Shown here piece by piece: positions 1-60,385 of a DNA stretch of 64,000 nucleotides. The position numbers and the translations under genes were made by a program. The DNA comes from Candidatus Poribacteria bacterium (GTDB taxonomy: Bacteria; Poribacteria; WGA-4E; WGA-3G): the NCBI GenBank assembly GCA_022820835.1, contig JAJEET010000143.1, positions 9,414 through 73,413 on the forward strand, read 5' to 3'. The notes beneath the pieces are model-generated. The model saw only the letters and a list, made by a program, of their open reading frames with translations, made no database searches and was not told the DNA's origin. Each line of letters opens with the position of its first letter. Position 1 is the first letter of the stretch.

Positions 1-19
1 TTCACTCATAGATAAACCA

Positions 20-421: not shown

Positions 422-536
422 TCTTCAGTCTCCCCTTTTCGCAATTGTGGAATGCTCAATCATATATCATATAAGGATTATATCACAATTTTAAAGGCTT
501 GGCAATCTTTTATCACAAAAACCGATATAAGCTTCG

Positions 537-2156: not shown

Positions 2157-2298
2157 CTTACGACTGATTTTGTTGCGACTGATTTTGTTGCTTTATTATG
2201 TAGGTTTTCGCGTTTAATGTCAATCTTCTAAACTGAAAACCTCTGAACTGTAGAATAGATTTCCTTGACAGTCGGGATTACATCTTGTAAAATTAAAG

Positions 2299-4074: not shown

Positions 4075-4138
4075 CTATTAGAAACCTGTTCATAAATCAG
4101 GTATCCCCATGCCTGCGGGATTGTACCCCCCACTAAAA

Positions 4139-4165
4139 CCATGCAGGCGGGGTTTGAAACCCCGC
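4139..4165. repeat. GC-rich palindrome CATGCAGGCGGGGTTTGAAACCCCGC, a member of an intergenic hairpin repeat family, located 3' of lnt
   Basis: Perfect inverted repeat GCGGGGTTT/AAACCCCGC. Related copies lie at 25221, 34721, 42057 and 60359. Confidence 0.7.
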
Positions 4166-4176
4166 TAAGGAGAAAT

Positions 4177-5281: not shown

Positions 5282-5397
5282 TACCAATCCGAAAGTTGAT
5301 AACTGACCATCCATGTATTTTAGGTTGCTTTACCTTTGCAACTAAAGTATAATTATTAAAAACTTCCCTACTTAAGCTCGAAAGGAAGGAGTTATCC

Positions 5398-6870: not shown

Positions 6871-7062
6871 AATGAGAACTGCGCCGCCGCTGCTTACAGA
6901 AAGATTGGCATCCGGAAGGGTGCTACAGAAAATCGGGATGCGCTATGAAAATCGTCTCGAAAAATTTGTACCGAAACGAAATCGATGTGAGGATTCAATA
7001 GGATACGGGATGCTAAAAGTAGACTACGACGCAATGATGTCAAGGATCCCATAGTTAAAAAT

Positions 7063-10218: not shown

Positions 10219-10273
10219 CACGCTTTCACGACACGAACTCGATAGCCGCACATATAGGAGATATTCTAATATT

Positions 10274-43612: not shown

Positions 43613-46600
43613 GTGAAAAAGAGCGAATCCTATTTGCCCATCTATCACCGGCACCCATACGATTACACAGTGTATCCCCAGCAGACAGACCTTTCGACAC
43701 GAACCCATAAGCCGCTGATTGCGATTTCTAATCCTGTGTACGCAGTGCTTGCGCTTTTTGTACTTGTCTGCTTCTTATGTCCACTGCAGACGGTGAGGGC
43801 ACAAGACGCGCAACCGTCTGAACCACCTGCAACCGAGGCGACGCCCGCTGAATCCACAGATCAGACGCAAGAGACGGAATCGAGTTCCGAACGGTTGAAC
43901 CCTGAGACTGACACACCGGAGGAAGGGATGGTTATCGGTGACGGCGACGATATGTCTATGGTAGACAATTTTGTTCAGATACATGGTAACGCGCTCATCA
44001 AATTTGAGGATGTCATCTTGCGGGCAGATCACGTCTGGGCTGATTTCGATGATAATCTAATGCGGGCATCCGGGAACGTCCATCTTATTGTCGGCGACGA
44101 AGAAACCTATTCCGATGAACTCATCTTTAACCTCGAAAACAAAAAAGGGATTGCCAGAAACGGTTTTACCTACAGCGATCCGTGGTACTTCGGAGGGAGT
44201 GAAATCTTTAAAATTGAGGACGACCGCTCCTACATCCGAGGTGGAACCCTAACAACCTGTTCACTGGAACATCCGCACTACTATTTCAGTGTTTCAGAGG
44301 TTATCGTTCGAGTGAATCAGGAGATGATCGCGAAAAACATCGTTTTGCATATCGGCGGGTTTCCGCTCTTTTACTTTCCGGCGATCCGGCGGGACCTCCG
44401 TAAAGGAAAAGTCGCGAAAATTATCGTTAAACTCGGAACCGATAGTTACCAAGGTCCTTACATCAGTATTATCCAACCGATCGCTCGGAAACGCCGCTAT
44501 GACGGCGCATTGCTTTACGATAGAAGTGCTAGACGTGGACAAGGCTACGGTTTTGAAGGAAAGTATCGATTCTTAGATACCAAATTCCAAGAAATTTATA
44601 TTCCTCTTCCAGAAGACGCAACACCGAACCAGCGCACGAAACTCGAAGAAAAGGCAAAGGAATTACAGGATCGACTTGACGGTGAATATGACCGTTATTG
44701 GTTGAAGCAGATCTTTATTGAATATAAAATTACTGAAGACGATATCAACCGTGCGAAAGAGAGTGCCGATACACTCTTCAAGCAGCTCCAAGAAGAAGGC
44801 GAAGATTTTGCACAACTCGCACAGCGCAGTTCCGACCATTCGGATACCCGATATGATGGCGGCGACCTCGGATTCCTCGCACGCGGTGAAACCGACGAGG
44901 ATGGCAACCCTAAACTTGATCCCATCCTAGAGGCGGCAGCCTTCGCACTACAAGAAGGTGAGATGAGCCCCGTTATTCAAACCGAATCCGCATTCCATAT
45001 CCTCAAAGCAGAGCAGGTTATTGACATCTACGGTGAACGAGAGATTAGACTGCGCAGAATTGATGTCGCCATTACCGCAAGTAATGATACAAAGGACGCA
45101 CTCCGTGTTTTAGCAGATGATATGCTCAAACGTGGACAAGAAGGCGAACCTTTTGAACAACTTGTACAAATATCCTCGGATATAGTGAAAGACTTTCCAG
45201 ACGAATTCGCTAATGTCGTACAACCGACGTTATCCGAAGTCAATGACGGAAATGGGTTGCCATTAAATGAGATGGAATCCTCGTGGCAATCGTCTGTCAG
45301 ACGCTTAGAGAAACCTGGAGACATCACCGAACGCAGACCTATCACGATGCCTGAAGGACTCTACATCTTCCAACTCATCAAAAAAGAAGAGACACCCACT
45401 TTTGAAGAAATCGCTGAGCAATTTGAAGCAGAATGGGAGACATTTTACGAAGGTGTAATGAACCCGGAACCGGAAGACACTGAAACAGAAACAGAAACCG
45501 ATGCGGATGCTGAAAATCAGACACAAGACACGCAATCCGAAGGTGCAAAAACAGAAACGGAAATCAGTGAGGAGGCTAAGGGGACAGCACAAGACGTACA
45601 ACCTGAAGAAGCCGAGAGCGCACCCGCAGTAGAAGAACCTGTCCAAGACCCCGATACGCCTGTCGAACAAGCACCGGCGACTGCTGATATTGAGGACACA
45701 CAGGATGCTGAACAACGCCAAACGGAGGAGAACGTACAGAACGGCAGCGACCCAGATCAAAGCGATGCCACCGAGGACAGCGTATCTGCCGACGAGGACC
45801 CAGAAGCCGAAGAAGAACTCGAAATCTATCGGAAACATGGATTTCGCGGTCGGTGGGAAGACCCGGCTCCAGTGTCATCAGAGGCAAATAGCCTATACGC
45901 TGGCGAAATAAGCAGGCGACCCATACGCACCAAAAAATCAATCCGCCTCATCAAAGTGGACAGGAAGCGCACCTTTCGCGGTGAACTCAACTTCTACGGT
46001 AAAGACCTCTATACCGCGCAGCGGCAGAGTGCTATCCGCACCGGGAACAACTATATAATGCGGTGGGGACATACACATTCTATCTACACACCGTGGGACA
46101 ACCGCCAAGAAGGACGGCGCCCCATCAGTTTCACTGGTAGAACCGAACTCCGGGCTGAAACTTACAAGGAAGAGTATAAACTACCCAACGAAGCCACTCT
46201 TAACTCTTTCGCGCTACTCACTTACGGAACGGGGTTATCGACTTATGATCTTGAAGACCGGGACGAGAACGGAAATCTGAAGTTTTCGCGAGAAACCATC
46301 GGCGACATCGCAAGCCGACTTGAAATCCGACATATCCACGACTTTACCGGCGAAGGCACGAGATCGCTACAGAAACTGCCACGATTAACCCTAAACTTTT
46401 CACGGATGCGCCTCAGTTCGCTCCCGTTTTTTGAGTCCCTCAATAACCAGATGGTAACGGTTTCTGAGAAACTCCAAACGGACAAACCGTTCCTTTCAAT
46501 GCTCGCCTTTCCGACGCTCGAAAGCGCAAGTTTTGACCTTGATATTGAACTCGGCAACTTCTATAGAGACACATTTCGCAACAAAGAAGGCATTACGGAG

Positions 46601-47653
46601 AGAAATGTCGCCCTAAAAACCATGGACCTCGGTTTCGATATCCGTAAACAGTCAACCCTCCTTATGACACCGTTGCGAGAACTGCAACTTAACCTCAACC
46701 TCAACACAAACATGATTTGGCACGACCGAGACCAGGATCTGAACAAGAACATTTTTAGAGGCGTTTTCAGTTTCAACGGGTCTGCTTCAAATACACTTTT
46801 TCGGATTTACAATGTTAGTTTTATACCCGGTTTACGGAAACTGCGGCACGAACTGCAATCCACGCTCCGATATGATTATCAGCCTGCGGTTGATAAAAAC
46901 GATAACCTTTATCCTTTCGGACCCAGCACGTATTTCTACGAGCGGAAGCGGCTTAGTTACAACTTTAATACAGCGATTGAAATCAAAACGAGGCGGAGCC
47001 AATCGGCGCACCGTGTGTTTTATCTTAATACGCGACTCACTGCCGATTTCACGGAATTCGACCCGTTATATGAACGTCAATTTGAACCGATTGAAAGCGA
47101 TTTCACAATCGTTCCGCTCCCGAGCCGAAGCCTGAACATGACAATCCGAACCACACATGACCCGAACCCGCACCCCGTTGATGGAAAACAGTTCAAGATG
47201 GTCGGCTTCCGTTCCAACATCCGCTACACGCGACAGACGTGGAACGTCAGCATCGGGAGTTCTTTTAGTAAACGCCATACTGCAAGACGCGCGTCCCGTT
47301 CTATTACCGCCAATGGACGCTACCGAGTCAGCCGGAATCTGTCGTTCGATGCCAATGTCATCTATTATCCGATTGATGGGCAGTTCTATCAGCAGCGTTT
47401 GAGTATGACGCGGAACCTACACGATTGGAACCTTCGACTCTCTTGGAGCCGTATCGGTATCAAACGCGACCCGCCTTATGACAACGTTCGTCAAGACTTC
47501 ACGTTCCAAGTGAACCTGATCCAAGAACCCGCAATCTCAATGGGTGTCGGCTATGACGCAACCACCGAAACATGGGGAATCCGTACCTTGCCAGCTGGCG
47601 TGCCATATAACGCATTCGGAGCCGGTAATTCACTCGGCAGGTCTTACTTCTAA
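43613..47653 (+). CDS. lptD: LPS-assembly protein LptD (OstA), enlarged by embedded parvulin-like segments and a long acidic low-complexity insert
   Basis: OstA N-terminal beta-jellyroll (LTTCSLEHPHYYFS), C-terminal LptD barrel region, internal ...DGGDLGFLARGE... and AFHILKA parvulin hallmarks, and a D/E/T/Q-rich stretch at ~45420-45830. 1346 aa. Confidence 0.75.
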   Translation: MKKSESYLPIYHRHPYDYTVYPQQTDLSTRTHKPLIAISNPVYAVLALFVLVCFLCPLQTVRAQDAQPSEPPATEATPAESTDQTQETESSSERLNPETDTPEEGMVIGDGDDMSMVDNFVQIHGNALIKFEDVILRADHVWADFDDNLMRASGNVHLIVGDEETYSDELIFNLENKKGIARNGFTYSDPWYFGGSEIFKIEDDRSYIRGGTLTTCSLEHPHYYFSVSEVIVRVNQEMIAKNIVLHIGGFPLFYFPAIRRDLRKGKVAKIIVKLGTDSYQGPYISIIQPIARKRRYDGALLYDRSARRGQGYGFEGKYRFLDTKFQEIYIPLPEDATPNQRTKLEEKAKELQDRLDGEYDRYWLKQIFIEYKITEDDINRAKESADTLFKQLQEEGEDFAQLAQRSSDHSDTRYDGGDLGFLARGETDEDGNPKLDPILEAAAFALQEGEMSPVIQTESAFHILKAEQVIDIYGEREIRLRRIDVAITASNDTKDALRVLADDMLKRGQEGEPFEQLVQISSDIVKDFPDEFANVVQPTLSEVNDGNGLPLNEMESSWQSSVRRLEKPGDITERRPITMPEGLYIFQLIKKEETPTFEEIAEQFEAEWETFYEGVMNPEPEDTETETETDADAENQTQDTQSEGAKTETEISEEAKGTAQDVQPEEAESAPAVEEPVQDPDTPVEQAPATADIEDTQDAEQRQTEENVQNGSDPDQSDATEDSVSADEDPEAEEELEIYRKHGFRGRWEDPAPVSSEANSLYAGEISRRPIRTKKSIRLIKVDRKRTFRGELNFYGKDLYTAQRQSAIRTGNNYIMRWGHTHSIYTPWDNRQEGRRPISFTGRTELRAETYKEEYKLPNEATLNSFALLTYGTGLSTYDLEDRDENGNLKFSRETIGDIASRLEIRHIHDFTGEGTRSLQKLPRLTLNFSRMRLSSLPFFESLNNQMVTVSEKLQTDKPFLSMLAFPTLESASFDLDIELGNFYRDTFRNKEGITERNVALKTMDLGFDIRKQSTLLMTPLRELQLNLNLNTNMIWHDRDQDLNKNIFRGVFSFNGSASNTLFRIYNVSFIPGLRKLRHELQSTLRYDYQPAVDKNDNLYPFGPSTYFYERKRLSYNFNTAIEIKTRRSQSAHRVFYLNTRLTADFTEFDPLYERQFEPIESDFTIVPLPSRSLNMTIRTTHDPNPHPVDGKQFKMVGFRSNIRYTRQTWNVSIGSSFSKRHTARRASRSITANGRYRVSRNLSFDANVIYYPIDGQFYQQRLSMTRNLHDWNLRLSWSRIGIKRDPPYDNVRQDFTFQVNLIQEPAISMGVGYDATTETWGIRTLPAGVPYNAFGAGNSLGRSYF

Positions 47654-47682
47654 CACCGTTAAGACTTATGCGTTCCGACTTG

Positions 47683-47729
47683 AACGCATCGCTGAAAATG
47701 TTGCAAAGATTTTGGAGGATACGGTATAA
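47683..47729 (+). pseudogene. Remnant of the 3' end of an hsdM gene (encodes ...[16 protein letters not shown]), duplicated at 51331-51377
   Basis: About 50 nt nearly identical to the 3' end of hsdM (49812..51377), including the stop and the downstream TATAATG. Confidence 0.55.
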
Positions 47730-47747
47730 TGTGAGAGAGGTAGAATC

Positions 47748-48104
47748 GTGAAGGATAAAATAAAAGATGTGCAATGGGTCGGAGATTCTCGGGAACAGGT
47801 ACAGCGTTTCCCCAAACCTGCAAGAAGAACAGTAGGACAAGCACTTAATGCTGCTCAATCCGGTTTTAAACATATGGATGCCAAACCGTTACGAGGAGTG
47901 GGTCCGGGTGTATTAGAAATTATTGCCCGTTACGATACAAACACATATCGCGCTGTTTATACTGTCAAACTTGGTGAAAACATCTATGTACTTCACGCAT
48001 TTCAGAAGAAATCCACCCGCGGCATTAGTACACCCAAAAAAGAAATGGACTTGATTAAGCATCGCCTGAAAATGGCGCAAGAGATGGAGGCAAAAAATGA
48101 GTGA
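47748..48104 (+). CDS. higB: Type II toxin HigB (Gp49-like, RelE/ParE superfamily)
   Basis: IYVLHAFQKKS ... motif family. Overlaps the downstream HTH antitoxin by 8 nt. Confidence 0.7.
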   Translation: MKDKIKDVQWVGDSREQVQRFPKPARRTVGQALNAAQSGFKHMDAKPLRGVGPGVLEIIARYDTNTYRAVYTVKLGENIYVLHAFQKKSTRGISTPKKEMDLIKHRLKMAQEMEAKNE

Positions 48105-48423
48105 AGAAATCAAAATTGAGGAGAGCTCTGGCAATGTATTTCTGGACATCGGTTTCTCCAAAGTTGAGGCTGAACGTGAACAGTTAAGAGTGGATCTCGT
48201 GATTAAAATTCATCGCCTCCTCAAGGAGCTAAAACTAACCCCGGCAGAAGCAGAGACTCGCTTTGGAATTGATCCGTCTGATGTATCCCGAATACAGAAC
48301 GGAGATTTTGACTTTAATGTAGACAAACTGTTTGCGATCCTAAGCCAGTTGAACCGCAATGTTGAAATTCGTATTACACCTTCAGACGAAAAAGGTGGAC
48401 ACCTACGAGTCATTGCTTCATAG
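48097..48423 (+). CDS. higA: HigA-like antitoxin (XRE-family helix-turn-helix)
   Basis: Paired with higB. HTH region LTPAEAETRFGIDPSDVSRIQNG. Confidence 0.7.
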   Translation: MSEEIKIEESSGNVFLDIGFSKVEAEREQLRVDLVIKIHRLLKELKLTPAEAETRFGIDPSDVSRIQNGDFDFNVDKLFAILSQLNRNVEIRITPSDEKGGHLRVIAS

Positions 48424-48458
48424 CGATACCTCCTTCGCTTTAGAAAAGGAAGGCTTTG

Positions 48459-49232
48459 ATGGTCCTTAAAGATCGCGTTTGTATTGTAACCGGCGGGAGT
48501 TCAGGCATCGGGCGCGGTATTGCACTCGAGTTTGCCCGTGAAGGCGCGCGTATCGCTATTGTAGATAAACGAGCGTCACCCCTTCGCGGCAAATATCACG
48601 AAACCGATGTCACAACGCCAACTGTCTCCGAAATCGAAAAACTCGGCGCACAAGGCGTATTCCTACAAACTGATGTCGCCGACGAAACACAAATCGCAAA
48701 CGCAATTCAGCAGACCGTCGAACATTTCGGTGGACTCGATATTCTCGTCAATAACGCCGGCATCCATATCCCCGGCGGTTCACAAGAAATCTCAATCGCC
48801 GATTGGGATAGTGTTGTCGGTGTTAACCTCCGTGGCGTTTTCATGTCCACGAAACTTGCGATCCCACATCTGAAACAGTCTAAATTTGGTCGGATTATCC
48901 AGATCGCCTCTGTTCATGCTTATGGGGGTGGTGCAGGGCCCGCGTATGCCCCCGCGAAAGCCGCTGTCGTCAACATGGTGCGAGATACCGCGTTAGAGAT
49001 CGGACAGGACGGGATAACCGTCAACGCCATCTGTCCCGGTTATATTGAAACAGCCATCCAAGATTACCTCACACCAGAACAGATTGACGAGGCACTCGAA
49101 AAAACCGCATTGCCGCGTTTCGGTCTACCGAGCGACATCGGACGTGCCGCTGTCTTTCTCGCCTCGGACGACGCAGAATGGATCACCGGTGCCTCCCTCC
49201 TCGTTGATGGCGGATTCGCCGCAGGTGTATAA
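48459..49232 (+). CDS. SDR-family NAD(P)-dependent oxidoreductase
   Basis: TGGSSGIGRG Rossmann motif, NNAG, catalytic Y..xK (YAPAK). Confidence 0.8.
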   Translation: MVLKDRVCIVTGGSSGIGRGIALEFAREGARIAIVDKRASPLRGKYHETDVTTPTVSEIEKLGAQGVFLQTDVADETQIANAIQQTVEHFGGLDILVNNAGIHIPGGSQEISIADWDSVVGVNLRGVFMSTKLAIPHLKQSKFGRIIQIASVHAYGGGAGPAYAPAKAAVVNMVRDTALEIGQDGITVNAICPGYIETAIQDYLTPEQIDEALEKTALPRFGLPSDIGRAAVFLASDDAEWITGASLLVDGGFAAGV

Positions 49233-49248
49233 ACAAACCATTTACAAT

Positions 49249-49794
49249 ATGCCAAACAAAACCCACACCACAGCCGTTGTTCTTATTCCGCCAGAAACCG
49301 TGCAGCCACCCATCCAAACCATCCGGCAGATTCACGACCGGAACTTCAGACGGTGGATGCCACACATAACGCTGCTCTATCCATTCGCGGAACGTCAACA
49401 TTTCGCTGCGATTACGCGAGCACTCGCAAAAGCAGCGAAACAGGTCTCCCCGTTTTCCATCCGACTTACACGTTTTGACGCATTCAAACACCGTAAATCG
49501 TGTACGATGTTCTTGATACCGGAACCCGAAGACGAAATTGTGCGATTACACAGCGTCCTGTTGCAACACCTTCCCGACTACGATGATACAGCCAGATTTG
49601 CTGGCGGATTCCACCCGCACCTCTCCGTCGGACAATTCCAGCACCGTTCTCTCCACACCGAACAGCAGCGACTCCAAACCGAATGGCAACCGATACAGTG
49701 TGAACTTGCACACCTCAGTCTCATCTATCGCTCACCTGAAACAGATGACCGATTCGTCGTTGCAGAACAATTCCCATTTCAGACAAGGAGTTAA
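49249..49794 (+). CDS. 2H-phosphoesterase (LigT / 2'-5' RNA ligase-like)
   Basis: Two H-x-T/S-x motifs (HITL and HLSV) with appropriate spacing. Start set at the internal ATG after the SDR stop. Confidence 0.6.
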
Positions 49795-49811
49795 CGCGGG
49801 AAACAGACATT

Positions 49812-51377
49812 ATGAACACCAACCTCACCGACATCGAAAATAGGCTCTGGAGTGCTGCCGATGAACTCAGAGCCAATTCACGTCTTAAGGCATCCGAATA
49901 CTCAACACCTGTCCTCGGTCTTATCTTTTTACGATACGCCGATCACAAATTTACACAGGCTGAACAAGAAATCAGCAGCGAAGCCGATCCAAACAGCCGT
50001 AGGCATCCTGACCTGAGAATGGAATGTCAAGCCCGCGGTGTACTTTATCTGACAGAGCATTCACGTTTTCAACACCTACTAAATCTGCCAGAGGGTGAAA
50101 ACATCGGACAAGCCATCACAGACGCTATGAAGGCAATAGAAGCAGAAAATTCACAAATAGAGGGCGTCCTCCCCAAAACTTACAATCGACTGGAAAAGAA
50201 TACACTCCTCGAACTCCTCCGTATCATGGAACAGATCCCTATGGACATTGAAGGAGATGCTTTTGGGAAGGTTTATGAGTACTTCCTCGGCAATTTCGCC
50301 ATGAGCGAGGGGCAACGCGGCGGTGAATTCTTCACGCCAACCTCGCTCGTCAAACTCATCGTCGAGATTATCCAACCCTTCCACGGGCGCATCCTGGATC
50401 CTGCCTGCGGATCCGGTGGAATGTTTGTCCAGAGTGCAGCGTTCATTAGCAACCACAAGAAAAATGGCACCCCCGGAGACATCAGCATTTACGGCGTGGA
50501 ACGCGTCGTTGAAACGATCAGGTTATGTAAGATGAATCTTGCCGTCCATGCGCTTGAAGGCGATATCAAACAGGCAAATAGTTACTATGAGGATCCGCAC
50601 AACTGCCTCAACAGGTTTGATTTCGTCATGGCAAATCCACCTTTTAACGTCGATCGCGTAGACAGAGAACGTATCAAAGATGATCCGCGATTCCCGTTCG
50701 GCATGCCACGCGTAGACAATGCGAATTACCTTTGGATACAACTGTTCTATAGTTCGCTCTCCGAATCTGGGCGTGCAGGTTTTGTCATGGCGAACTCTGC
50801 CGCCGATGCCCGCGCCTCCGAACTCGACATCCGTCGCCAAATTATCGAATCCGGGGCAGTTGATGTCATCGTCAGCATCGCCTCAAATTTCTTTTATACT
50901 GTTACCTTACCCTGTACGCTCTGGTTTTTCGATAAGTCCAAACGGAACAGCGATCGACACGATAAAGTCTTGTTCATTGATGCACGCCATCTCTATCAAC
51001 AAGTGAGCCGCGCACATCGGGAATTCACACCCGGACAACTCGAATTCCTTGCAAACATCGTCAGACTTTATCGCGGAGAAGCACCAGAAAATCAACACGA
51101 CAGCGCAGATTTCCTCGCCTCAAAATTCCCTGATACAGTATACATTGATGTCCCTGGACTTTGTAAGGTCGCTACGATTGCCGAGATTGAGACACAAGGT
51201 TGGAGTCTGAACCCCGGACGCTATGTCGGCGTTGACGAACAGACAACCGATGATTTCGACTTTGTTGAACGATTCACGCAGCTCAACGAGGAGTTAGCAG
51301 TACTAAATGCCAAAGCACACCAACTCGAAGAACGCATCGCCGAAAATGTTGCCAAGATTTTGGAGGATACGGTATAA
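49812..51377 (+). CDS. hsdM: Type I restriction-modification system, methyltransferase subunit HsdM
   Basis: HsdM N-terminal domain and N6-adenine MTase motifs ([15 protein letters not shown]). Confidence 0.9.
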
Positions 51378-51395
51378 TGTTGATGGAGGCAAAAA

Positions 51396-51725
51396 ATGAG
51401 TGAAGAGATTAAAATTGAGGAGAGTTCTGGGAATGTGTTTTTGGATATCGGTTTCTCTGAAGAAGAGGCGGAATATCATCAGTTAAGGGTAGACCTTGCA
51501 TTTGCAATCCACCATCTTCTTGAAGAACAAAAACTAACACCAACAAAAGCAAAAGCCCGCTTTGGACTTGATCCATCTGATGTGTCCCGACTGAAGAAAA
51601 TGGACTTTACAGATTTTACCATAGAGCAGTTGTTAGTAGTTCTGAAGCGGCTGAACCGCAAGGTTGAAATTCATATTAAGCCTTCGGACAAAACAGCCAA
51701 CTACCAGCGAGTTTTTGTTACGTAA
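51396..51725 (+). CDS. HigA-like XRE antitoxin, second copy (orphan, no adjacent higB)
   Basis: First 21 aa identical to the 48097 copy and ~65% identity overall. Preceded by the last ~20 nt of higB only. Confidence 0.65.
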   Translation: MSEEIKIEESSGNVFLDIGFSEEEAEYHQLRVDLAFAIHHLLEEQKLTPTKAKARFGLDPSDVSRLKKMDFTDFTIEQLLVVLKRLNRKVEIHIKPSDKTANYQRVFVT

Positions 51726-51726
51726 G

Positions 51727-51843
51727 CAAACGAGACCCTATACCGCCTCCCGATGCAACCCCGGAGGAAATCGGCGAATTTTGGGACACACATAACCTCA
51801 CCAATTACTGGGACGAAACCTACGAAGGAACCGCAATAGAGTA
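51727..51843 (+). other. Short reading frame or remnant encoding a BrnA-like N-terminal motif (DPIPPPDATPEEIGEFWDTHNLTNYWDETYEGTAIE*) with no start codon
   Basis: Near-identical to the N-terminus of the 52155 gene. In frame with brnT but separated from it by a TAG. Confidence 0.35.
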
Positions 51844-51883
51844 GGCTTGCTATTAGACAATAAACAAGGAACCGGAGCACAAT

Positions 51884-52165
51884 TTGAAAATTCATGAGGT
51901 TATATGGTTATCACAATTCGTTGAGAAAATAGCGAGCAAGCATAATGTGAAAACGACAGAAGTTGAAGAAGTTTTAACTAATCGTCCGTATTTTCGACGT
52001 GTCTCCAAAGGCAATAGAGTTGGTGAAGATGTATACTCAGCTATGGGACAAACAGACGCGGGACGTTATCTCCTCGTTGTTTTCATTCTAAAATCAGATC
52101 GTCGTGCATTGATTATCAGTGCCAGAGATATGAGTAGAAGGGAGCGAAGAAATTATGGAAAATAA
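51884..52165 (+). CDS. brnT: BrnT-family (DUF497) type II toxin ribonuclease
   Basis: W..F.EKIASKHNV ... G.DVYSAMGQT ... RRALIISARDMSRRERRNY matches the BrnT motif pattern. TTG start. Confidence 0.65.
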   Translation: MKIHEVIWLSQFVEKIASKHNVKTTEVEEVLTNRPYFRRVSKGNRVGEDVYSAMGQTDAGRYLLVVFILKSDRRALIISARDMSRRERRNYGK

Positions 52166-53447
52166 AAATAAAAAACGAGATCCAATGCCGCCTCCTGATG
52201 CAACACCAGAGGAAATCGGCGAATTTTGGGACACACATGACCTCGCCGATTATTGGGAGGAAACCGAGGAAGTGGAATTTCAGGTTAACCTAAAATCGGA
52301 ACAAAATCAGGTTCAATCTGACGAAACTAAGCCTAATCCACCTGCAACCACTGAAGATTTAGTTGATGCTGCTCTCAATTTTAGCACTAATCTTCTAACA
52401 ACTCTGGATCTTCCCGCTTCAGCCCTAAAAAATGTCTATAAAGCTCTTGGTCGATTGAGTTCTGCTGCACTTGAGGTGCCCGTTGCATTTCTCGAAGGAA
52501 AAGCGGAAGAGGTTCGCGCCAAATCAGAGGGACGTGTTAAAATTATAGCAAAAGGGACTGATCAAACTATTCAACAAATGGAGGTCCCGTCGGAGTATGC
52601 ACGAATAGCAGTAGACAAATACGTAGGAAAAATAATTGGAGAACAGCTCAATCTTGATAAAATCTCCGCTATTGCTGCAAATGAACTTAAGAACAGCGAA
52701 TCCAGCAATCCAACCAATCCAGACACAAGTGCACCTAATAAAGAACAATCTTCTGATTCAACAAACCAGAAGACAAATGGTAGTGAGGAACAGATAATCA
52801 ACGACGATTGGCTCAATAGCTTTGAAACAGAAGCGCGCTCAAAAAGCACAGAAGATATGCAGCTTCGTTTTGGGCGTATCTTAGCAGGTGAGATTCAAAA
52901 ACCAGGGTCGTATTCAATAAGGGCTGTAAAACTTCTCAGCGAACTTGATCAAAATATCGCGGCTTTGTTTAAAAGATTCTGTGCAGCGTGTGTAGTCGTT
53001 GAAGTTCTTGGAATTCCAAATAGCAAACAAGTATTTGATGCTAGGGTTTTGTCTTTAGGTGGTAGCCTTATATCTAATGCTCTCAGCAAACATGGATTAG
53101 GGCTTGATCAACTTAATATATTAAACGAGTACCGTCTAATTACTTCCGGGGACATTTCTCTGCATGACCACAACTTGGCCTCTCTGTATGACTACAACTT
53201 GTGCATAGAACATGAAGACAATCCAGTGCTTTTGCCATTCCAACACCAAGGAAAACACTGGATTTTATCACCTACACCAGAACGAAATAATAACTCAGAG
53301 CTTAGATTATCGGGAGTTATGCTTTCCCGGGTCGGCCGTGAATTATTCCGCATAGTTGACCAGGATCCTATGCCAGAATATACTGAAGACCTCAAGAAAC
53401 TTTTCGCAGATCAAAAACTACAAATGGTTGAAATCCGCAACCAATGA
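52155..53447 (+). CDS. Protein with a BrnA-like N-terminal antitoxin motif fused to a ~370-aa domain of unknown function (possibly Abi-like)
   Basis: N-terminus DPMPPPDATPEEIGEFWDTHDLADYWEE is the BrnA/COG3514-type motif. The remainder has no RHH or other recognised domain. Overlaps the brnT stop by 11 nt. AT-rich by eye. Confidence 0.5.
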   Translation: MENKNKKRDPMPPPDATPEEIGEFWDTHDLADYWEETEEVEFQVNLKSEQNQVQSDETKPNPPATTEDLVDAALNFSTNLLTTLDLPASALKNVYKALGRLSSAALEVPVAFLEGKAEEVRAKSEGRVKIIAKGTDQTIQQMEVPSEYARIAVDKYVGKIIGEQLNLDKISAIAANELKNSESSNPTNPDTSAPNKEQSSDSTNQKTNGSEEQIINDDWLNSFETEARSKSTEDMQLRFGRILAGEIQKPGSYSIRAVKLLSELDQNIAALFKRFCAACVVVEVLGIPNSKQVFDARVLSLGGSLISNALSKHGLGLDQLNILNEYRLITSGDISLHDHNLASLYDYNLCIEHEDNPVLLPFQHQGKHWILSPTPERNNNSELRLSGVMLSRVGRELFRIVDQDPMPEYTEDLKKLFADQKLQMVEIRNQ

Positions 53448-53454
53448 TTTTTAA

Positions 53455-54717
53455 ATGTCAGAGGATATGTTAAGAGGTCAAAGTATGGTTCAAAAATTGC
53501 CTAAAGATTGGAAAATAAAAACTCTTGGAGAGGTGACAGATATTTTTAAGGGAGGCACCCCTAAACGAAGTGTTGAGAGGTATTTTCAAGGCGATATTGC
53601 ATGGGCAATACCAACTGATATTACTAAATTGAATGATGCATTGTACATAGACGATACCGAAACACATATAACTGAAGAAGCCCTTGGTAAGAGTTCCGCA
53701 AAATTGTTGCCAGCTGGAACTGTCCTTTTGACAAGTCGAGCAACGATTGGAAAGGTAGCAATATCTCGGATTCCTATGGCAACAAATCAGGGTTTTGCCA
53801 ACTTCTTATGCAAAGAAGAAATTGATAACCTTTTTCTCGCTTATTACCTTAAAGCGAAAACGGATTTGTTAATTTCACTTGGCACTGGAACAACATTTCT
53901 AGAGGTTACAAAAGGAAGGCTCCTTGAGGTTGAAATCCCACTACCTCCTCTCGCAACCCAACGCAAAATCGCTGCTATTCTCTCCACCTACGACGACCTC
54001 ATCGAAAACAATACACGCCGCATCAAAATCCTTGAAGACATTGCACAAACCCTCTACCGAGAATGGTTCGTACACTTCCGATTCCCCGGACACGAAAACG
54101 TCCCGATGGTAGAATCACCGTTGGGCCCGATACCACAGGGATGGCAGGTTAAGAGTTTTGGCGAGGTTTCCCTTAACTTTGATCGCCAGCGTAAGCCACT
54201 ATCAGGAAGGGTTAGGGCAAAAATGCAAGGCGAATATCCATATTATGGTGCTGCTAAAGTTTTGGATCATATCAACGATTATTTATTTGATGGCCGGTAT
54301 TTATTAATTGGTGAAGATGGTAGTGTTGTTACTAAGGATGGAAAACCTGTGCTGCAGTTAGTAACTGGAAAGCTCTGGGTAAATAATCATACACATGTTG
54401 TCCAGGGAAAGTCACCAATTTCGACAAATTTCCTTTATTTGTTCATGTCCAATGTAGCCATTTTAGGTTATGTTACCGGTTCCGCACAGCCAAAGATTAA
54501 TCAACAAAACTTGAATAGAATTCCAGTCATTTCACCTCCGCAAAAATTGTTAGAAAAATTTGACCAAATGATTGAATCCAATTTTGAAAACATTACAGCG
54601 TTAAAACTGAAAAACGCCAACCTCCGCCAAACCCGAGACCTTCTCCTCCCCAAACTCATCTCCGGCGAGATTGACGTATCCGAACTTGATATTGACCCTG
54701 ATTCTAAAAGCAATTGA
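53455..54717 (+). CDS. hsdS: Type I restriction-modification system, specificity subunit HsdS
   Basis: Two target-recognition domains separated by the conserved central helix (LPPLATQRKIAAILSTYDDLIENNTRRIKILEDIAQTLYREWF) plus the C-terminal conserved repeat. Start may be the internal Met (53485). Confidence 0.85.
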   Translation: MSEDMLRGQSMVQKLPKDWKIKTLGEVTDIFKGGTPKRSVERYFQGDIAWAIPTDITKLNDALYIDDTETHITEEALGKSSAKLLPAGTVLLTSRATIGKVAISRIPMATNQGFANFLCKEEIDNLFLAYYLKAKTDLLISLGTGTTFLEVTKGRLLEVEIPLPPLATQRKIAAILSTYDDLIENNTRRIKILEDIAQTLYREWFVHFRFPGHENVPMVESPLGPIPQGWQVKSFGEVSLNFDRQRKPLSGRVRAKMQGEYPYYGAAKVLDHINDYLFDGRYLLIGEDGSVVTKDGKPVLQLVTGKLWVNNHTHVVQGKSPISTNFLYLFMSNVAILGYVTGSAQPKINQQNLNRIPVISPPQKLLEKFDQMIESNFENITALKLKNANLRQTRDLLLPKLISGEIDVSELDIDPDSKSN

Positions 54718-54878
54718 CAGATACAACGCGAGGGTGTATAATTACAACAAGGCAATTGAGAGAACACTTGCGTATTCAATATCGACTTTCAGTGCTTTGT
54801 TAGTGATACTGGAAAGGGTTTACATGAGTAAATGGAAAGACTTAACCAGGCACGATATTCAGGAAGGAGAAGAATGAA

Positions 54879-55118
54879 ATGAACGTAACCACTGAATTAA
54901 TAACGGATCAAGAAGCACTATCAAAAGACAAGCAGCTGATCCCACCTGCTGCGACAGAGCAAGCGGAGACTGAACAAAAGGCACTTATGGACTACGCCGA
55001 GGCACAACTTCGGAAGTTATCCGCGTCTCGAGGTTTAAATTGGGATAAGATGACCGATGAGGAACGCATAGATTTTGTTGATGACCTCATCCACGAAGAC
55101 CGCGAGTGCAAACGGTAA
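54879..55118 (+). CDS. Small hypothetical protein (79 aa) overlapping the start of the downstream ATPase
   Basis: ORF only; acidic and helical. No recognisable motif. Confidence 0.3.
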   Translation: MNVTTELITDQEALSKDKQLIPPAATEQAETEQKALMDYAEAQLRKLSASRGLNWDKMTDEERIDFVDDLIHEDRECKR

Positions 55119-56305
55119 AGGTAAAATCCATGTCCGAACAGAAAGCGTTTTTAGAGAAAATTCATATCAAAAACTTCCTAAGTTTACGGAACGTTACGCT
55201 TCCACTAAAACCTCTGACTGTTCTTGTTGGACCTAATGGAAGTGGTAAATCCAATACTTTAAGATCTCTACGTCTTTCTAATGGTATGTTGAATGTTGAA
55301 ACACCTCCCACAAAGACAGATTTTCTCAGAGATCGCCTTTGGGCAGGCGGAACAGACTATATCACCTGCGAACTACACGTTAAGGTGAAGGAAGAATCAG
55401 CACAATATACATTGGTGTTTAAAGCTAACGGTGACAATCTTTCTATTGATGAAGAATTATTGGTTAACACGATTAAGGTTATCTCAATTCAGAATGGAAA
55501 AGGACATGTTTGGGATGAAGATGGCAAAAAAGAAACAAAATACACATCCAATAAACTCGCTTTGAGATCTGCTGGTGATTATGGACATAAACCAGTTACG
55601 ATTGCATTGACAGAGTTTATTCGAGGATGGGAATTTTATGACTTTCAACCAGACAACATGCGAGTTAATTTTGATAGATCTTCTTCTGCTGCAAAAGATA
55701 TTCGAGAATCGCTAAAACTTAATCCTTATGGTGTGAATGTCCCAGACATACTTTGGAATTGGTACGAGGATACCCCCGAGGATTTCCGTTATGTTAGTGA
55801 GGCCCTATCCGCTTCCACGAATATCAACATAGACTACCACAAAATTGATGGAAGATCCCAGCTCTGCCTTCTTGAAGGCTACAAGGATCCACTACCTTTA
55901 ACTGGTGCCTCTGATGGAACACTGCGCCTTCTTGCATATAACACCTTACTCAACCAATCTGAATTACCGCCGCTTATTGCCATTGAAGAACCGGAGCGAA
56001 GTTTACACCCGGGAGCATTAAAAGATATTGCATACATACTTGAAAAACTAGCTGAACGAACACAAGTAATTATCACAACACATAGCTCACAACTCCTTGA
56101 CACCTTCAGTGCTGAGAAGCTATCAAATTCATTGGGTGTTTTACTCTTACGCAACCGCCCTGGGCTCGGCACGGAAGTACTCAACATTGAGGATATCCGC
56201 GATAAGCGTGAAGCACTGGCGGGTTGGATTGCTGATTTCGGAATCGGCAGTGCCGTTTTTGACAGTGGATTGCTACAAGACCTTATGGAGGAGCCGATAT
56301 GCTAA
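55106..56305 (+). CDS. ABC-type AAA ATPase (AAA_21/OLD-N-terminal-like)
   Basis: Walker A GPNGSGKSN, ABC signature and Walker B (LLAYNTL ... LIAIEEPE), H-loop TTHS. No transmembrane or DNA-binding domain recognised. Confidence 0.7.
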   Translation: MQTVKVKSMSEQKAFLEKIHIKNFLSLRNVTLPLKPLTVLVGPNGSGKSNTLRSLRLSNGMLNVETPPTKTDFLRDRLWAGGTDYITCELHVKVKEESAQYTLVFKANGDNLSIDEELLVNTIKVISIQNGKGHVWDEDGKKETKYTSNKLALRSAGDYGHKPVTIALTEFIRGWEFYDFQPDNMRVNFDRSSSAAKDIRESLKLNPYGVNVPDILWNWYEDTPEDFRYVSEALSASTNINIDYHKIDGRSQLCLLEGYKDPLPLTGASDGTLRLLAYNTLLNQSELPPLIAIEEPERSLHPGALKDIAYILEKLAERTQVIITTHSSQLLDTFSAEKLSNSLGVLLLRNRPGLGTEVLNIEDIRDKREALAGWIADFGIGSAVFDSGLLQDLMEEPIC

Positions 56306-56862
56306 GCGTGAGAGTTTGGAATTTGCAATTGGATGGGGACGCTAAAGCAGTCAAATTTTTGGAAAATGAATTTTTGAGATTCAGGCAACTTGGAGATATC
56401 GCTATCCGAACAGCCGGAAGCAGTGCGCTTCGCAAGTGTCATGGAAAAGGCACACTTTTAGAGCGAAGGCTGAGGAAAGCGATCCAGTACTACCTCAACC
56501 AAGACGACTATATTATTTTCATCGTTGACTCTGACCAACAAGGACAATCAGAATCAAAATCACTTGTTGCGCAAATCAGATGTGTCGTTGAAGATGGAGA
56601 TTTTTCTGATAAAATCTTTTTCATGCCGGATATCCAAGAATATGGGGATTCTATACCAACAGAGTGGCAGCGCATCGTTTCGCGCTTCCGTTCTGAAGTT
56701 GAAAGTGAGCGCAAACGGTTTCGGGAGGAGTGGGATAAAACCCTCGCACACTTCCATAACGCCTTTTCCGATATTCCAGAGGAGGAAGTACTACGACATT
56801 TTGAGGAAGCACTGGCAGAGGTGAGGCGTGAACGAGCCAGAGCTGCGGATATTCACAAATAA
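56299..56862 (+). CDS. Small protein with a TOPRIM-like acidic motif (YIIFIVDSDQQG), DUF4276-like partner of the ATPase
   Basis: Overlaps the ATPase stop by 7 nt. hhhhhDxD motif following a predicted beta-strand. 187 aa. Confidence 0.45.
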   Translation: MLSVRVWNLQLDGDAKAVKFLENEFLRFRQLGDIAIRTAGSSALRKCHGKGTLLERRLRKAIQYYLNQDDYIIFIVDSDQQGQSESKSLVAQIRCVVEDGDFSDKIFFMPDIQEYGDSIPTEWQRIVSRFRSEVESERKRFREEWDKTLAHFHNAFSDIPEEEVLRHFEEALAEVRRERARAADIHK

Positions 56863-56884
56863 TATTCAAAAGGAATAAATCGCA

Positions 56885-57199
56885 ATGATTCAAATTTCTG
56901 AACCGATAACACTTGAAAAACTATTACCACTGATACATAAGCTGCCCAAAGCTGAGCGCGAGCAACTGCGTGAATCCCTTGAAGTGGAATCACAGTTGGA
57001 TGCCGCTATTTTACTCTATCAGGAAGATAAAGTGTCCCTTGCCAGAGCCGCTGAGTTAGCAGGTATCCATCGTTTTGAATTTGAAGAGGCTTTGGCAGCC
57101 AGAGGTATCTTAAGAATCGTTGAGGTTGATTCAGCAGAAGCATCAAAAGCACGGATTTCCACTATCAAACGCCTTCACAAATCTAATCCGAACAAATGA
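56885..57199 (+). CDS. UPF0175-family small protein (antitoxin-like), no cognate PIN/DUF3368 partner nearby
   Basis: KVSLARAAELAGIHRFEFEEALAARGI motif. Overlaps the hsdR start. Confidence 0.45.
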   Translation: MIQISEPITLEKLLPLIHKLPKAEREQLRESLEVESQLDAAILLYQEDKVSLARAAELAGIHRFEFEEALAARGILRIVEVDSAEASKARISTIKRLHKSNPNK

Positions 57200-60100
57200 A
57201 TCCATACAGCGAAGACCAACTCATTGAACAACCCGCAATCCATCTACTTAAAGAAATCGGATGGGAAACGCTAAACTGCCACAGCGAATTTGAACAGACA
57301 GAAGAGAGTCCACTCGGTCGGCACACCAAATCCGAAGTCGTCCTAACTGCCCGACTGCAACCCGCGCTAAAACGCTTCAACCCGACTGCAACCGATGCTG
57401 CTATTGCCAAGGCAATTGAGGAACTGACCCACTCCCGCGCAGTTATGAGTCCGATTGAAGCCAATCGCGAGATTTATACCCTCCTGAAAGACGGCGTGAA
57501 GGTCACCCTCAGCGATCCAAACAGCGAAGACGAGACCGTTGAAGTCCTACGAGTGATTGATTGGGAACACCCAGAGCACAACGATTTCTTCGCCGCATCC
57601 CAATTCTGGATTACCGGCGAGATGTATACAAAACGTCCAGATATAGTCTGTTTCGTCAATGGAATTCCGTTAGTCCTGATGGAGTTTAAGCGGATTGATG
57701 TTCATCTCCACGCTGCCTATACCGACAACCTCCGAGACTACAAAGACACTATTCCACACCTGTTTTGGTATAACGCCTTTATTTTACTCTCTAACGGCAC
57801 GGAAAGTAAAGTCGGGAGTCTCACTGCTGAGTGGGAACACTTCGCTGAATGGAAACGCATTCACAGCGAAGACGAAACCCCTCAAACCGCCTTAGAGACA
57901 ATCCTGCACGCACTTTGCACACCCGAAAAATTGCTCGACATCGTTGAAAACTTTATCCTGTTTATGGAGGCACAAGGCGGATTCATCAAAATCCTTGCCA
58001 AGAACCATCAATACCTCGGTGTCAACAATACGATCGAATCCCTGAAACGGATTGAAGATAACCACGGCAAACTCGGTGTCTTTTGGCATACACAGGGCAG
58101 CGGGAAAAGCATCTCAATGCTCTTCTTGGCACAGAAAGTCCATAGAAAAGTACTTGGAAACTGGACGTTTGTTGTTGTAACCGATCGCAAGGAATTGGAT
58201 AACCAAACCTACAAAACCTTCGCCAGTACAAGCGGTGTGCTGACACAGCAGGAAGTGCATGCAGAAGATATAAAACATCTCCGCCGACTTCTCAGTGAAG
58301 ACCATCGTTATATTTTCACACTTATCCACAAGTTCCAGACGCAAGGTAGCGAGCAGCATCCCGTACTCTCAGAGCGGTCAGACATCGTCGTCATGACAGA
58401 TGAAGCACATCGGAGTCAATACGATACACTCGCTTTGAACATGCGTACCGCGCTCCCCAACGCCGCATTCATTGCATTTACGGGTACCCCGCTCATGGCT
58501 GGCGAAGAAAAAACAAAAGCGGTCTTCGGCGATTATGTGAGTGTCTATGACTTCAACCAATCTATTGTGGATCGCGCGACCGTGCCACTCTACTATGAGA
58601 ACCGCGTACCTACGCTACAACTGATAAATGAAGACTTCAATGCAGACATCGAACAGATCCTTGAAGATGCCGAACTGGATGAGGCACAAGAGACGAAGCT
58701 TGAACATGAATTCGCCAGAGAGTATCACCTCATTACACGAGATGACAGGTTAGAAACTATCGCTGAGGATATCGTCTCACACTTTATAGGTAGAGGCTAT
58801 CAGGGAAAAGCCATGGTCATCTCGATCGACAAAGCGACTGCTGTTAAAATGTTCGACAAAGTGCAGAAATATTGGAAGCGTTTAATTGAACAACTGAAAT
58901 CCGAAGCAGCCACGCGACACGGTAGTGAAAAGCACCACTTACAAGAGCGGATCCACTACATGGAAGAAACCGATATGGCGGTCGTCGTTTCCCCGGGACA
59001 AAACGAAATCGACGAACTCAGGCAAAAAGGCGTAGACATCACACAGCACCGCACCCGTATGAACACTGAGGATTTGGACACCCAATTCAAAGACCCCGAT
59101 GACCCCTTCCGAATTGTCTTTGTCTGTGCGATGTGGATTACCGGTTTCGATGTCCCTTCCTGTTCCACGATCTATCTTGATAAACCGCAGCGAAACCACA
59201 CTTTGATGCAGACCATTGCCAGAGCGAATCGCGTCTTCGGTGATAAAAATAACGGTTTAATTGTTGACTACATCGGCGTTTTCCGTGATCTCGAAAAAGC
59301 GTTGGCGATTTATGCTACGGGTGCGGATATAGAAGGAAACCAGAAACCGATCGCGGATAAGTCAGAACTGATTGAAAAACTCCGAGCGACGATCGCCGCA
59401 ACCACCGAGTTCTGCCGAAGTCTCGGTATTGACTTAGATGAAGCCCAAACGGACGAGGCATTCCAAAACATCACTCAAATCAATGATGCGATGGAACGTA
59501 TCTTGGTGAATGATGAAACCAAAAAGCGTTATCTGCAACTCGCAATGAACGTCACCAAACTATACAAAGCGATCCTGCCTGATCCGGATGCCCACGAATT
59601 TACCAGAATCTGTCAACTCATCCATATCATCGCACAGAAAATCAGAAATTTGACACCACCGGCTGACATCTCCGGTGTCATGACAGACGTTGAGACGGTG
59701 CTGGATCGGTCCATCGCACCAGAAGGCTATCGCATTGAGATACCAGCTGAGGGATACGATACGGAACAGATAGATCTAAGTCAGATTGATTTTGAGCAGT
59801 TAAGTGAGCGATTCAATACACAGCACAAACGCGTTGAATCGGAAAGACTCAGAGGCGCGATCAACAGTAAACTCACCGCAATGATCCGTCTTAACAGAAG
59901 TCGTATGGATTATCAGGAGAAATTTGAGGAGATGATCGCAGAATACAATGCGGGTACGATCGGTGTTTCGGATTATTTTCAGAGACTTTTTGATTTCGTT
60001 AATGATCTCCACGAAGAAGACCAACGCGCCAGTACTGAAGACCTCTCCGAAGAAGAACTGGCGGTGTTTGACCTTCTCACACAACGCGAGCCTCACTTAA

Positions 60101-60357
60101 CGGTTCCAGAGCGAGATGAAGTTAAAAATGCCGTGAAGGAAATGCTTGAAACACTCAAACGAGAGAAATTGGGCTTGGATTGGCGGAAACATACACAAAC
60201 ACGCGCACAAGTCAGGCTTGCTGTTGAAAATATACTCGATGATGAACTGCCCCAACCTTACACACCGGAACTATTTAATCAGAAATCCGAGGCGGTCTAT
60301 CAGCACATCTATGATTCTTACTACGGTGAGGGAAAAAGCATTTATACCGAAAATTAA
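57196..60357 (+). CDS. hsdR: Type I restriction enzyme, R subunit HsdR
   Basis: N-terminal nuclease region, DEAH-box helicase motifs (HTQGSGKS, VVMTDEAHRSQ, FTGTPL, QTIARANR) and the C-terminal helical domain. 1053 aa. Confidence 0.9.
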   Translation: MNPYSEDQLIEQPAIHLLKEIGWETLNCHSEFEQTEESPLGRHTKSEVVLTARLQPALKRFNPTATDAAIAKAIEELTHSRAVMSPIEANREIYTLLKDGVKVTLSDPNSEDETVEVLRVIDWEHPEHNDFFAASQFWITGEMYTKRPDIVCFVNGIPLVLMEFKRIDVHLHAAYTDNLRDYKDTIPHLFWYNAFILLSNGTESKVGSLTAEWEHFAEWKRIHSEDETPQTALETILHALCTPEKLLDIVENFILFMEAQGGFIKILAKNHQYLGVNNTIESLKRIEDNHGKLGVFWHTQGSGKSISMLFLAQKVHRKVLGNWTFVVVTDRKELDNQTYKTFASTSGVLTQQEVHAEDIKHLRRLLSEDHRYIFTLIHKFQTQGSEQHPVLSERSDIVVMTDEAHRSQYDTLALNMRTALPNAAFIAFTGTPLMAGEEKTKAVFGDYVSVYDFNQSIVDRATVPLYYENRVPTLQLINEDFNADIEQILEDAELDEAQETKLEHEFAREYHLITRDDRLETIAEDIVSHFIGRGYQGKAMVISIDKATAVKMFDKVQKYWKRLIEQLKSEAATRHGSEKHHLQERIHYMEETDMAVVVSPGQNEIDELRQKGVDITQHRTRMNTEDLDTQFKDPDDPFRIVFVCAMWITGFDVPSCSTIYLDKPQRNHTLMQTIARANRVFGDKNNGLIVDYIGVFRDLEKALAIYATGADIEGNQKPIADKSELIEKLRATIAATTEFCRSLGIDLDEAQTDEAFQNITQINDAMERILVNDETKKRYLQLAMNVTKLYKAILPDPDAHEFTRICQLIHIIAQKIRNLTPPADISGVMTDVETVLDRSIAPEGYRIEIPAEGYDTEQIDLSQIDFEQLSERFNTQHKRVESERLRGAINSKLTAMIRLNRSRMDYQEKFEEMIAEYNAGTIGVSDYFQRLFDFVNDLHEEDQRASTEDLSEEELAVFDLLTQREPHLTVPERDEVKNAVKEMLETLKREKLGLDWRKHTQTRAQVRLAVENILDDELPQPYTPELFNQKSEAVYQHIYDSYYGEGKSIYTEN

Positions 60358-60358
60358 G

Positions 60359-60385
60359 TAAGGCGCGGTTTCAAACCGCGCCTAC
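60359..60385. terminator. Palindrome AAGGCGCGGTTTCAAACCGCGCCTACC between convergent hsdR and pfp, a likely bidirectional terminator or variant of the hairpin family
   Basis: Perfect 10-bp stem GGCGCGGTTT/AAACCGCGCC. Immediately 3' of both genes. Confidence 0.55.

Follow-up and report, generated by a model that had tools for sequence, protein, structure and literature searches.

Type I restriction-modification (R-M) operons are known to carry additional defense genes embedded among their own, a principle described as 'guilt-by-embedding' with PrrC as an example (Payne et al., 2024, bioRxiv 10.1101/2024.01.29.577857). HEC-01, a published candidate consisting of an ABC-type ATPase and a TOPRIM protein, was found embedded in defense systems, and HEC-03 (ABC ATPase and PIN) and PARIS (AriA ATPase and AriB TOPRIM) each join a nuclease effector to an ABC ATPase. 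Further relevant systems are the BrnT/BrnA type II toxin-antitoxin (TA) pair of Brucella abortus and Belisama, a single-gene DUF2806 anti-phage system from the chromosomal integron of Vibrio cholerae with a toxic, lysis-inducing, abortive-infection phenotype. Here, a Type I R-M locus of 12.7 kb is described which lies in a 64-kb stretch (hereafter the window) of the genome of a sponge symbiont, Candidatus Poribacteria. The preferred reading, to which a probability of roughly 0.7 is assigned, is that a resident, apparently functional R-M operon serves as scaffold for nested modules, one of which consists of an ATPase and its 187-aa partner protein (T187), derived from HEC-01, with the associated PIN_3 toxin gene deleted.

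Family scans against Pfam, PADLOC and NCBIfam, combined with a map of the open reading frames (ORFs), reproduced exactly the gene order of a prior reading of this DNA (the original prediction). All genes of the region lie on the forward strand. As had been proposed, hsdM (49812-51377; N6_Mtase, E = 2e-82; HsdM_N, 3e-23; PADLOC MTase_I, 8e-222), hsdS (53455-54717; Methylase_S, 3e-50; PADLOC Specificity_I, 4e-90) and hsdR (57196-60357; HSDR_N, SWI2_SNF2, T1R_D3-like and T1RH-like_C; PADLOC REase_I, 1e-190) form one operon in which they are separated by TA-like and defense-like genes. HsdM features the N6-adenine methyltransferase domain with the motifs DPACGSGG and NPPF readable in translation, HsdS comprises two target-recognition domains (Methylase_S in two stretches), and the N-terminal nuclease, superfamily 2 motor and C-terminal domain of HsdR are all present, including the motifs GSGKS, DEAH and D...EFK. 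Across species, the ratio of non-synonymous to synonymous substitution rates (dN/dS) amounts to 0.057 for hsdM and 0.10 for hsdR, although here and below the pairs compared are phylogenetically non-independent, which counts against the weight these ratios lend to the preferred reading. As the subunits are full length, the motifs intact and purifying selection strong, the system looks functional, with N6-methyladenine methylation and restriction predicted; the inactivation of the R-M genes that was to be checked for was not found. A phase-variable hsdS shufflon was considered and rejected, as hsdS is present once and neither long inverted repeats nor a recombinase were found. The locus resembles the known embedding cases in that accessory defense and TA genes are nested among hsdM, hsdS and hsdR on the same strand. 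It differs in that several modules are embedded at once and in that it is conserved across a phylum-level clade, mixed with housekeeping genes.

The central nested module starts with the gene of an ABC-type ATPase (55130-56305; AAA_21/AAA_15 in Pfam). Its product matches the PADLOC model HEC-01A (PDLC04182, E = 2.1e-45) over residues 15-339 and thus nearly at full length, with weaker matches to AriA (partial, 1e-27), AbiLi (2e-24) and mad3; the motifs GPNGSGKS, IEEPE and TTHS can be read in translation. Across 42 species, the product of the corresponding ORF (55106-56305) is well conserved around Walker A and over its C-terminal half, with two variable internal stretches at about residues 60-120 and 180-220. 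The identity to the window copy is 54% to 85% for the ATPase, even where that of T187 remains at 66-88%. The start of the T187 gene (56299-56862) overlaps the ATPase stop by 7 nt, and this overlap persists across species. Close homologues of T187 numbered 270, and all of those with a source name belong to Candidatus Poribacteria.

Direct scans of T187 and of a small 79-aa ORF upstream of the ATPase (54879-55118) against Pfam, PADLOC and NCBIfam yielded chance-level matches only; for T187, there was no PADLOC match at E <= 0.1, and the HEC-01B models were not matched directly. A profile search with the T187 orthologues nevertheless led to 99 representative clusters, and 23 of 43 aligned members, which are distant and about 250 aa long, match DUF4276 and HEC-01B. 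The alignment of the T187 group with these canonical relatives by hhalign reached a probability of 99.8% (E = 1.5e-27). The canonical proteins follow a HEC-01A ATPase with no PIN gene and possess invariant E10, D75 and D77 as well as an ELEAW motif. Among the T187 orthologues, a glutamate at position 10 occurs in 21 of 45 (glutamine in the window) and an aspartate at position 79, the second of the DxD, in 23 of 45; ELEAW is absent, and conservation of the metal-binding acidic residues of TOPRIM was not found. The C-terminal PEEEV...EVRRER tail, on the other hand, is invariant in 44-45 of the 45 orthologues. An AlphaFold model of T187 (pLDDT, the predicted local distance difference test, 85.6) features a four-stranded alpha/beta domain and a long helical hairpin. 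T187 comprises a DUF4276/HEC-01B-like domain at residues 1-120 and a helical tail at 125-180, and it appears to be a degenerate TOPRIM domain whose C-terminal half was replaced by a PIN_3-antitoxin-like tail. The label 'TOPRIM-like' given to it before therefore holds through profile links to distant relatives and not through a direct family match.

Together, ATPase and T187 probably derive from the two-gene candidate HEC-01. The likeness lies in the near full-length match of the ATPase to HEC-01A and in an overlapping partner gene whose product is homologous to the HEC-01B/DUF4276 type. The differences are that T187 has neither the direct HEC-01B match nor the conserved acidic residues nor ELEAW, that its tail is PIN_3-antitoxin-like, and that the loci of relatives add a PIN_3 gene. 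The expectation of an undescribed system is hence confirmed in part: the ATPase belongs to an already published candidate, whereas the partner is a new derivative, and the PIN_3 effector is deleted here. As further variation of the family, a second T187 paralogue of about 37% identity stands in tandem between ATPase and T187 in several Poribacteria loci (denoted by L-numbers; L016 9241-9973, L008 9251, L018 9432-10000, likewise L023, L028, L030 and L042), and in L018 it adjoins a match to the 79-aa ORF. C-terminal fusions of T187-family members (proteins of the comparison set are denoted by P-numbers) to UPF0175 in P0123 and to DUF433 in P0142 both concern antitoxin-type domains.

The connection to PIN_3 becomes evident from the relatives. 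In 27 of 45 species, T187 is 180 aa long and its gene runs with an overlap into that of PIN_3, and this set includes every locus at which the module stands without R-M beside the genes of a short-chain dehydrogenase (SDR), a LigT-like phosphoesterase and a periplasmic binding protein (PBP). The acidic residues D16, E54, D99, D102, D121 and D123 of PIN_3 are conserved to at least 95% among 32 orthologues, and the PIN_3 proteins of the relatives matched no PADLOC model. Compared with L004, about 435 nt are missing from the window at a junction at 56843-56863, the flanks of which match L004 10402-10544 and 10980-11116 at 91-92% identity. The PIN_3 toxin gene has been precisely deleted, and PIN_3 was not found anywhere else in the 64-kb window.

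The tail of T187 also exists on its own. In L053, next to serS, a 78-aa protein ending in the T187 tail precedes and overlaps PIN_3 as a canonical two-gene TA pair. Such a pair of a free-standing 63-78-aa antitoxin and PIN_3 adjoins serS in L052-L056 (near 9920-10620), with PIN_3 truncated or missing in L052, L055 and L056, and in two of the genomes with the serS pair (those of L049 and L044), the ATPase-T187-PIN_3 trio is also present at another site. A second tail type is found in the paralogous TOPRIM-like protein P0148, which is likewise followed by PIN_3; by comparison of alignments by eye, the C-terminus of the 79-aa ORF matches this tail. Downstream of T187 in L034, L037, L038 and L039, PIN_3 is interrupted by an in-frame stop near 10527, which may represent a common pseudogenization. 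In the window, the deletion is followed by a gene of the UPF0175 antitoxin family (56885-57199; PF03683, 2.4e-12). For a UPF0175-PIN pair, the adjacent PIN toxin is absent in the window and hsdR comes next, while PIN_3 lies between T187 and UPF0175 in L004, L009, L021 and L026.

From these sequence relationships, we infer that the T187 tail may be a PIN_3-binding antitoxin element and the dead TOPRIM domain an ATPase-binding adaptor. In the trio of the relatives, the ATPase would detect infection, and T187 would bind it through the dead TOPRIM domain and keep PIN_3 inactive through the tail. A trigger would then free the PIN_3 RNase and lead to abortive infection in a PARIS-like manner. The release-on-trigger logic of HEC-03 and PARIS thereby serves as model for the ancestral trio, which has an ABC ATPase and a nuclease effector in common with them. 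The trio deviates by the adaptor between ATPase and PIN and by a PIN_3 outside the PADLOC models. Regarding PARIS, T187 matches neither DUF4435 nor AriB and the AriA matches of the ATPase are only partial; regarding HEC-03, the PIN effector beside the ATPase is missing in the window. There, the effector-less module might neutralize a PIN_3 from another part of the genome or fulfill another ATPase-linked role.

The wider proposal that a HEC-01-type system of Poribacteria swapped its effector, with TOPRIM turned into a non-catalytic adaptor whose VapB-like antitoxin tail, of two types, holds a PIN_3 RNase, is tentative and itself rather doubtful. If true, it would describe a three-gene abortive-infection system of ATPase, adaptor/antitoxin and PIN which is not part of PADLOC v2.0.0, and an adaptor under selection after toxin loss would imply a second role, e.g., neutralizing PIN_3 elsewhere. 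Several observations weigh against the reading of the module given here. The DUF4276 matches of the T187 relatives remain under the Pfam cut-off (27.8 vs. 30.2 bits). Searching the Protein Data Bank (PDB) with the T187 model gave no fold match below E = 0.001, the best being a TIR domain at E = 0.024, and because of this non-significant outcome the TOPRIM fold is without independent confirmation. T187 is kept without the ATPase in some loci (L007, L017). Its dN/dS is 0.22 with or without PIN_3 (0.17 for the tail), and since it is equally constrained without the toxin, sequestration alone does not explain its conservation. Finally, HEC-01 itself gave no protection in the published assay.

A second nested module precedes hsdS. 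It consists of brnT (51884-52165; PF04365, BrnT_toxin, 46.5 bits at a cut-off of 34.5), encoding a BrnT-family RNase, and of an overlapping gene (52155-53447) for a 430-aa fusion protein in which a helical linker joins a BrnA N-terminal segment (about residues 8-50) to DUF2806 (residues 208-414; PF10987, 82.9 bits at a cut-off of 24.5). At the N-terminus, CopG_antitoxin scores 21-23 bits, under its cut-off of 28, and covers profile positions 10-45 of 79 only; a complete BrnA with its ribbon-helix-helix domain was not found in the fusion. Compared with BrnT/BrnA of Brucella abortus, the BrnT-family toxin is likewise followed by an overlapping gene opening with a BrnA-like segment, but the ribbon-helix-helix half is replaced by about 380 residues including DUF2806. 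Many homologues align with 98-100% of the fusion, and in others the N-terminus is missing. brnT also overlaps a DUF2806 gene in L062, L063 and L029, and the contexts of the pair range from the inside of an R-M operon (L062, window) over the neighborhood of the ATPase module without R-M (L029) to an unrelated, non-defense environment (L063). BrnT and BrnA-N::DUF2806 thus form an autonomous overlapping gene pair. The BrnA segment could tether BrnT to the Abi-like DUF2806 protein. It speaks against this tether that the described structure is that of BrnT only, with the part of BrnA contacting BrnT not given. The structure model of the fusion has a mean pLDDT of 60.9 and no PDB matches. With Belisama, the fusion has the DUF2806 domain above the Pfam threshold in common, and the two are likened by this domain alone; here, the system comprises two genes, as BrnT is added as a partner and an antitoxin-like segment is fused to the N-terminus, and the anti-phage role is a prediction.

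The BrnA N-terminal segment also concerns hsdS. In five species (L001 6539-7912, L004 6390-7964, L005 3650-5254, L007 8026-9420 and L025 6497-7900), HsdS begins with this segment (KKRDPMPPPDATPEEIGEFWDTH..., about 48 aa) as an in-frame fusion, where it is much more conserved than the neighboring target-recognition domain, and it stands free as a 61-78-aa ORF just upstream of hsdS in seven others. The segment may be a portable leader, fused to DUF2806 or to HsdS depending on the species, which would parallel the proposed effector swap.

An alternative is that a tolerant operon has collected selfish or decaying TA debris in the form of the nested genes, which play no role in defense and leave the R-M system as the only relevant part. 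Antitoxin-like genes without cognate toxins fit this explanation, i.e., the second higA copy (higA', see below), the T187 tail and UPF0175, as do the BrnA remnant, the PIN_3 deletion, the missing phenotype of HEC-01 and the 79-aa ORF, which is conserved in seven relatives at a dN/dS of 0.39. Against it stands the purifying selection found for the ATPase (0.20), UPF0175 (0.10), the BrnA N-terminal segment (0.18) and T187, in the latter unchanged after PIN_3 loss; moreover, the ATPase-T187 overlap is kept across species, and DUF2806 has a relative with experimentally shown anti-phage activity. The debris explanation is deemed possible, if unlikely.

The history of the locus was approached by a scan of one genome per species, which gave 54 loci, all from Poribacteria, onto which the window proteins were mapped by tblastn. 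The original prediction saw a single island between lptD and pfp, i.e., one horizontally acquired composite of 12.7 kb which may hide an undescribed system. Its composition seems to favor such an origin, as the G+C content reaches its minimum for the window in the embedded stretch at 51-57 kb and the embedded genes show a G+C content at third codon positions (GC3) of 0.29-0.39. Remnants and duplications also suggest insertion events, and insertion sequence (IS) elements occur in the homologous locus of some relatives. However, hsdM and hsdR have a host-like GC3 of 0.51, and in about 45 species of Poribacteria the R-M genes and the ATPase module are syntenic here. SDR, LigT and often PBP follow the LptD-like gene even in relatives without R-M (L027, L029, L037, L041). 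Scans and repeat comparison of the window detected no tRNA, integrase or flanking repeat at the locus. A mobile-element island was rejected on the same grounds, with no integrase or transposase in the region, no flanking repeats and the IS elements confined to some relatives' loci. Of the suspected insertion signature, only the deviating composition thus remained and the borders did not. The single-island explanation is largely refuted by the locus synteny and is regarded as quite improbable.

SDR (48456-49232; adh_short_C2, E = 1e-59), with a dN/dS of 0.07, is a conserved neighbor and not defense cargo, and the same applies to the 2H/LigT-like phosphoesterase (49249-49794; PF13563, 2.5e-34; start set at the MPNK methionine to match relatives), which is syntenic in nearly all loci. 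Comparing the synteny from lptD to pfp did reveal the same locus in the relatives, but in at least three arrangements and without the boundaries of one island. The R-M genes lie after LigT/PBP and before the phosphofructokinase gene (PFK) in the window, L001, L004, L010, L025 and L026. In L003, L013, L030 and L042, they come between the LptD-like gene and the higBA-SDR block, and in L028 they are split by SDR-SDR2-LigT-PBP. In the latter locus (5-7600), hsdM-higA is situated upstream and hsdS...hsdR downstream of these four housekeeping-type genes, with no second hsdM.

Repeated segments accompany these shifts. A remnant of the hsdM 3' end (47682-47732), comprising the last 16 codons and the stop, matches 51330-51380 at 96% identity over 51 nt. 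It is followed by higB (47748-48104; PF05973, 1.8e-20) and, with an overlap of 8 nt, by higA (48097-48423; HTH_37, PF13744, 2.9e-14), and hence by a HigBA pair of a Gp49/HigB toxin and an overlapping helix-turn-helix antitoxin; the dN/dS of higB among relatives is 0.14. Directly behind the complete hsdM lies higA' (51396-51725; HTH_37, 2e-17), an orphan antitoxin copy with 77% DNA and 62% protein identity to higA and with 350 nt of higB missing relative to the upstream copy. Next to it, a BrnA N-terminal pseudogene remnant without start codon (51725-51841) is 87% identical over 100 nt (51728-51827) to the start of the fusion gene (52173-52272). Both short remnants reported earlier are thus real. 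L001 and L003 share the hsdM-tail scar in front of higBA or SDR, and L010, L015, L026 and L050 contain partial matches to HsdM at its position. It is therefore an old scar of several species and not the fresh mark of an insertion, and the notion that an ancestral defense cluster was simply interrupted is not supported. Because the neighbors are conserved, the arrangements shuffled and the hsdM scar common to several species, the region is a resident locus, old and prone to recombination, and not the product of one recent insertion. It has been reshuffled repeatedly among the Poribacteria via the repeated segments, i.e., the hsdM tail, higA and the BrnA N-terminal segment, and this reshuffling accounts for the two remnants and the orphan higA'. 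The operon, resident and apparently functional, acts as a scaffold for smaller modules on the same strand.

The three best forward-strand matches to a sigma-70-like promoter lie in the hsdM-tail remnant (TTGCAA-18-TATAAT, 47701-47730), in the hsdM tail just upstream of higA' (TTGCCA-18-TATAAT, 51349-51378) and at the end of hsdS (TTGACA-17-TATAAT, 54714-54742), the last agreeing in 12/12 positions and being a consensus match only. Promoter-like sites are in total no more numerous than in shuffled sequence. The promoter-like site in the 51-nt scar may explain why the scar is conserved.

Least convincing is the explanation that the restriction enzyme itself includes ATPase, T187 and UPF0175 as accessory subunits, in a MADS-like integrated methylation-associated system and not as an independent module: weak similarity to mad3, mad4, mad2 and mad5, the overlap of the UPF0175 stop with the start of the directly following hsdR and the location of T187 and UPF0175 mostly directly upstream of hsdR in PIN_3-less loci are outweighed by trios without nearby R-M (L027, L029, L033, L037, L038, L041) or in other contexts (L043-L049), by R-M systems elsewhere without the module inside in several species (L031, L035, L039) and by a score of 84.6 bits for the equivalog-level NCBIfam model MAD3 (NF047739) at a cut-off of 420, which renders it very improbable.

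Regarding the surroundings, the label 'lptD' for the upstream gene could not be upheld, as Pfam yields a peptidyl-prolyl isomerase (PPIase) domain and OstA_2 merely at E = 0.12, with no significant LptD/OstA match; an identity as LptD was accordingly not confirmed. The gene (43613-47653) encodes 1346 aa; the PPIase domain is of the PPIC type and lies internally, and a long stretch is acidic and of low complexity. The LptD-like gene of relatives adjoins a SurA-like gene in a conserved manner. The palindrome noted at the end of hsdR is a hairpin with a G+C-rich stem of 10 bp (60361-60383) between the convergent hsdR and PFK and is likely a bidirectional terminator. Neither non-coding RNAs nor tRNAs were detected with Rfam or by a tRNA scan, whether in 42-64 kb or in the entire window.

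The nesting of defense genes in Type I R-M operons is already known, the ATPase module stems from a candidate described before, and known TA families account for the remaining parts. New are the adaptor of degenerate TOPRIM and antitoxin tail, accompanied by PIN_3 in relatives, and the fusions with the BrnA leader. For the window itself, the meaning is more modest: an R-M system that looks active and a nested ATPase module without effector. Beyond this, the locus offers a natural example of how ATPase defense modules could change their effector, with a dead nuclease kept as adaptor and a toxin recruited via an antitoxin-like tail. The ATPase-T187-PIN_3 trio of relatives and BrnT with BrnA-N::DUF2806 provide testable constructs. 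For the sponge symbionts, R-M operons represent long-lived platforms at which TA and defense modules are gained, fused and lost.

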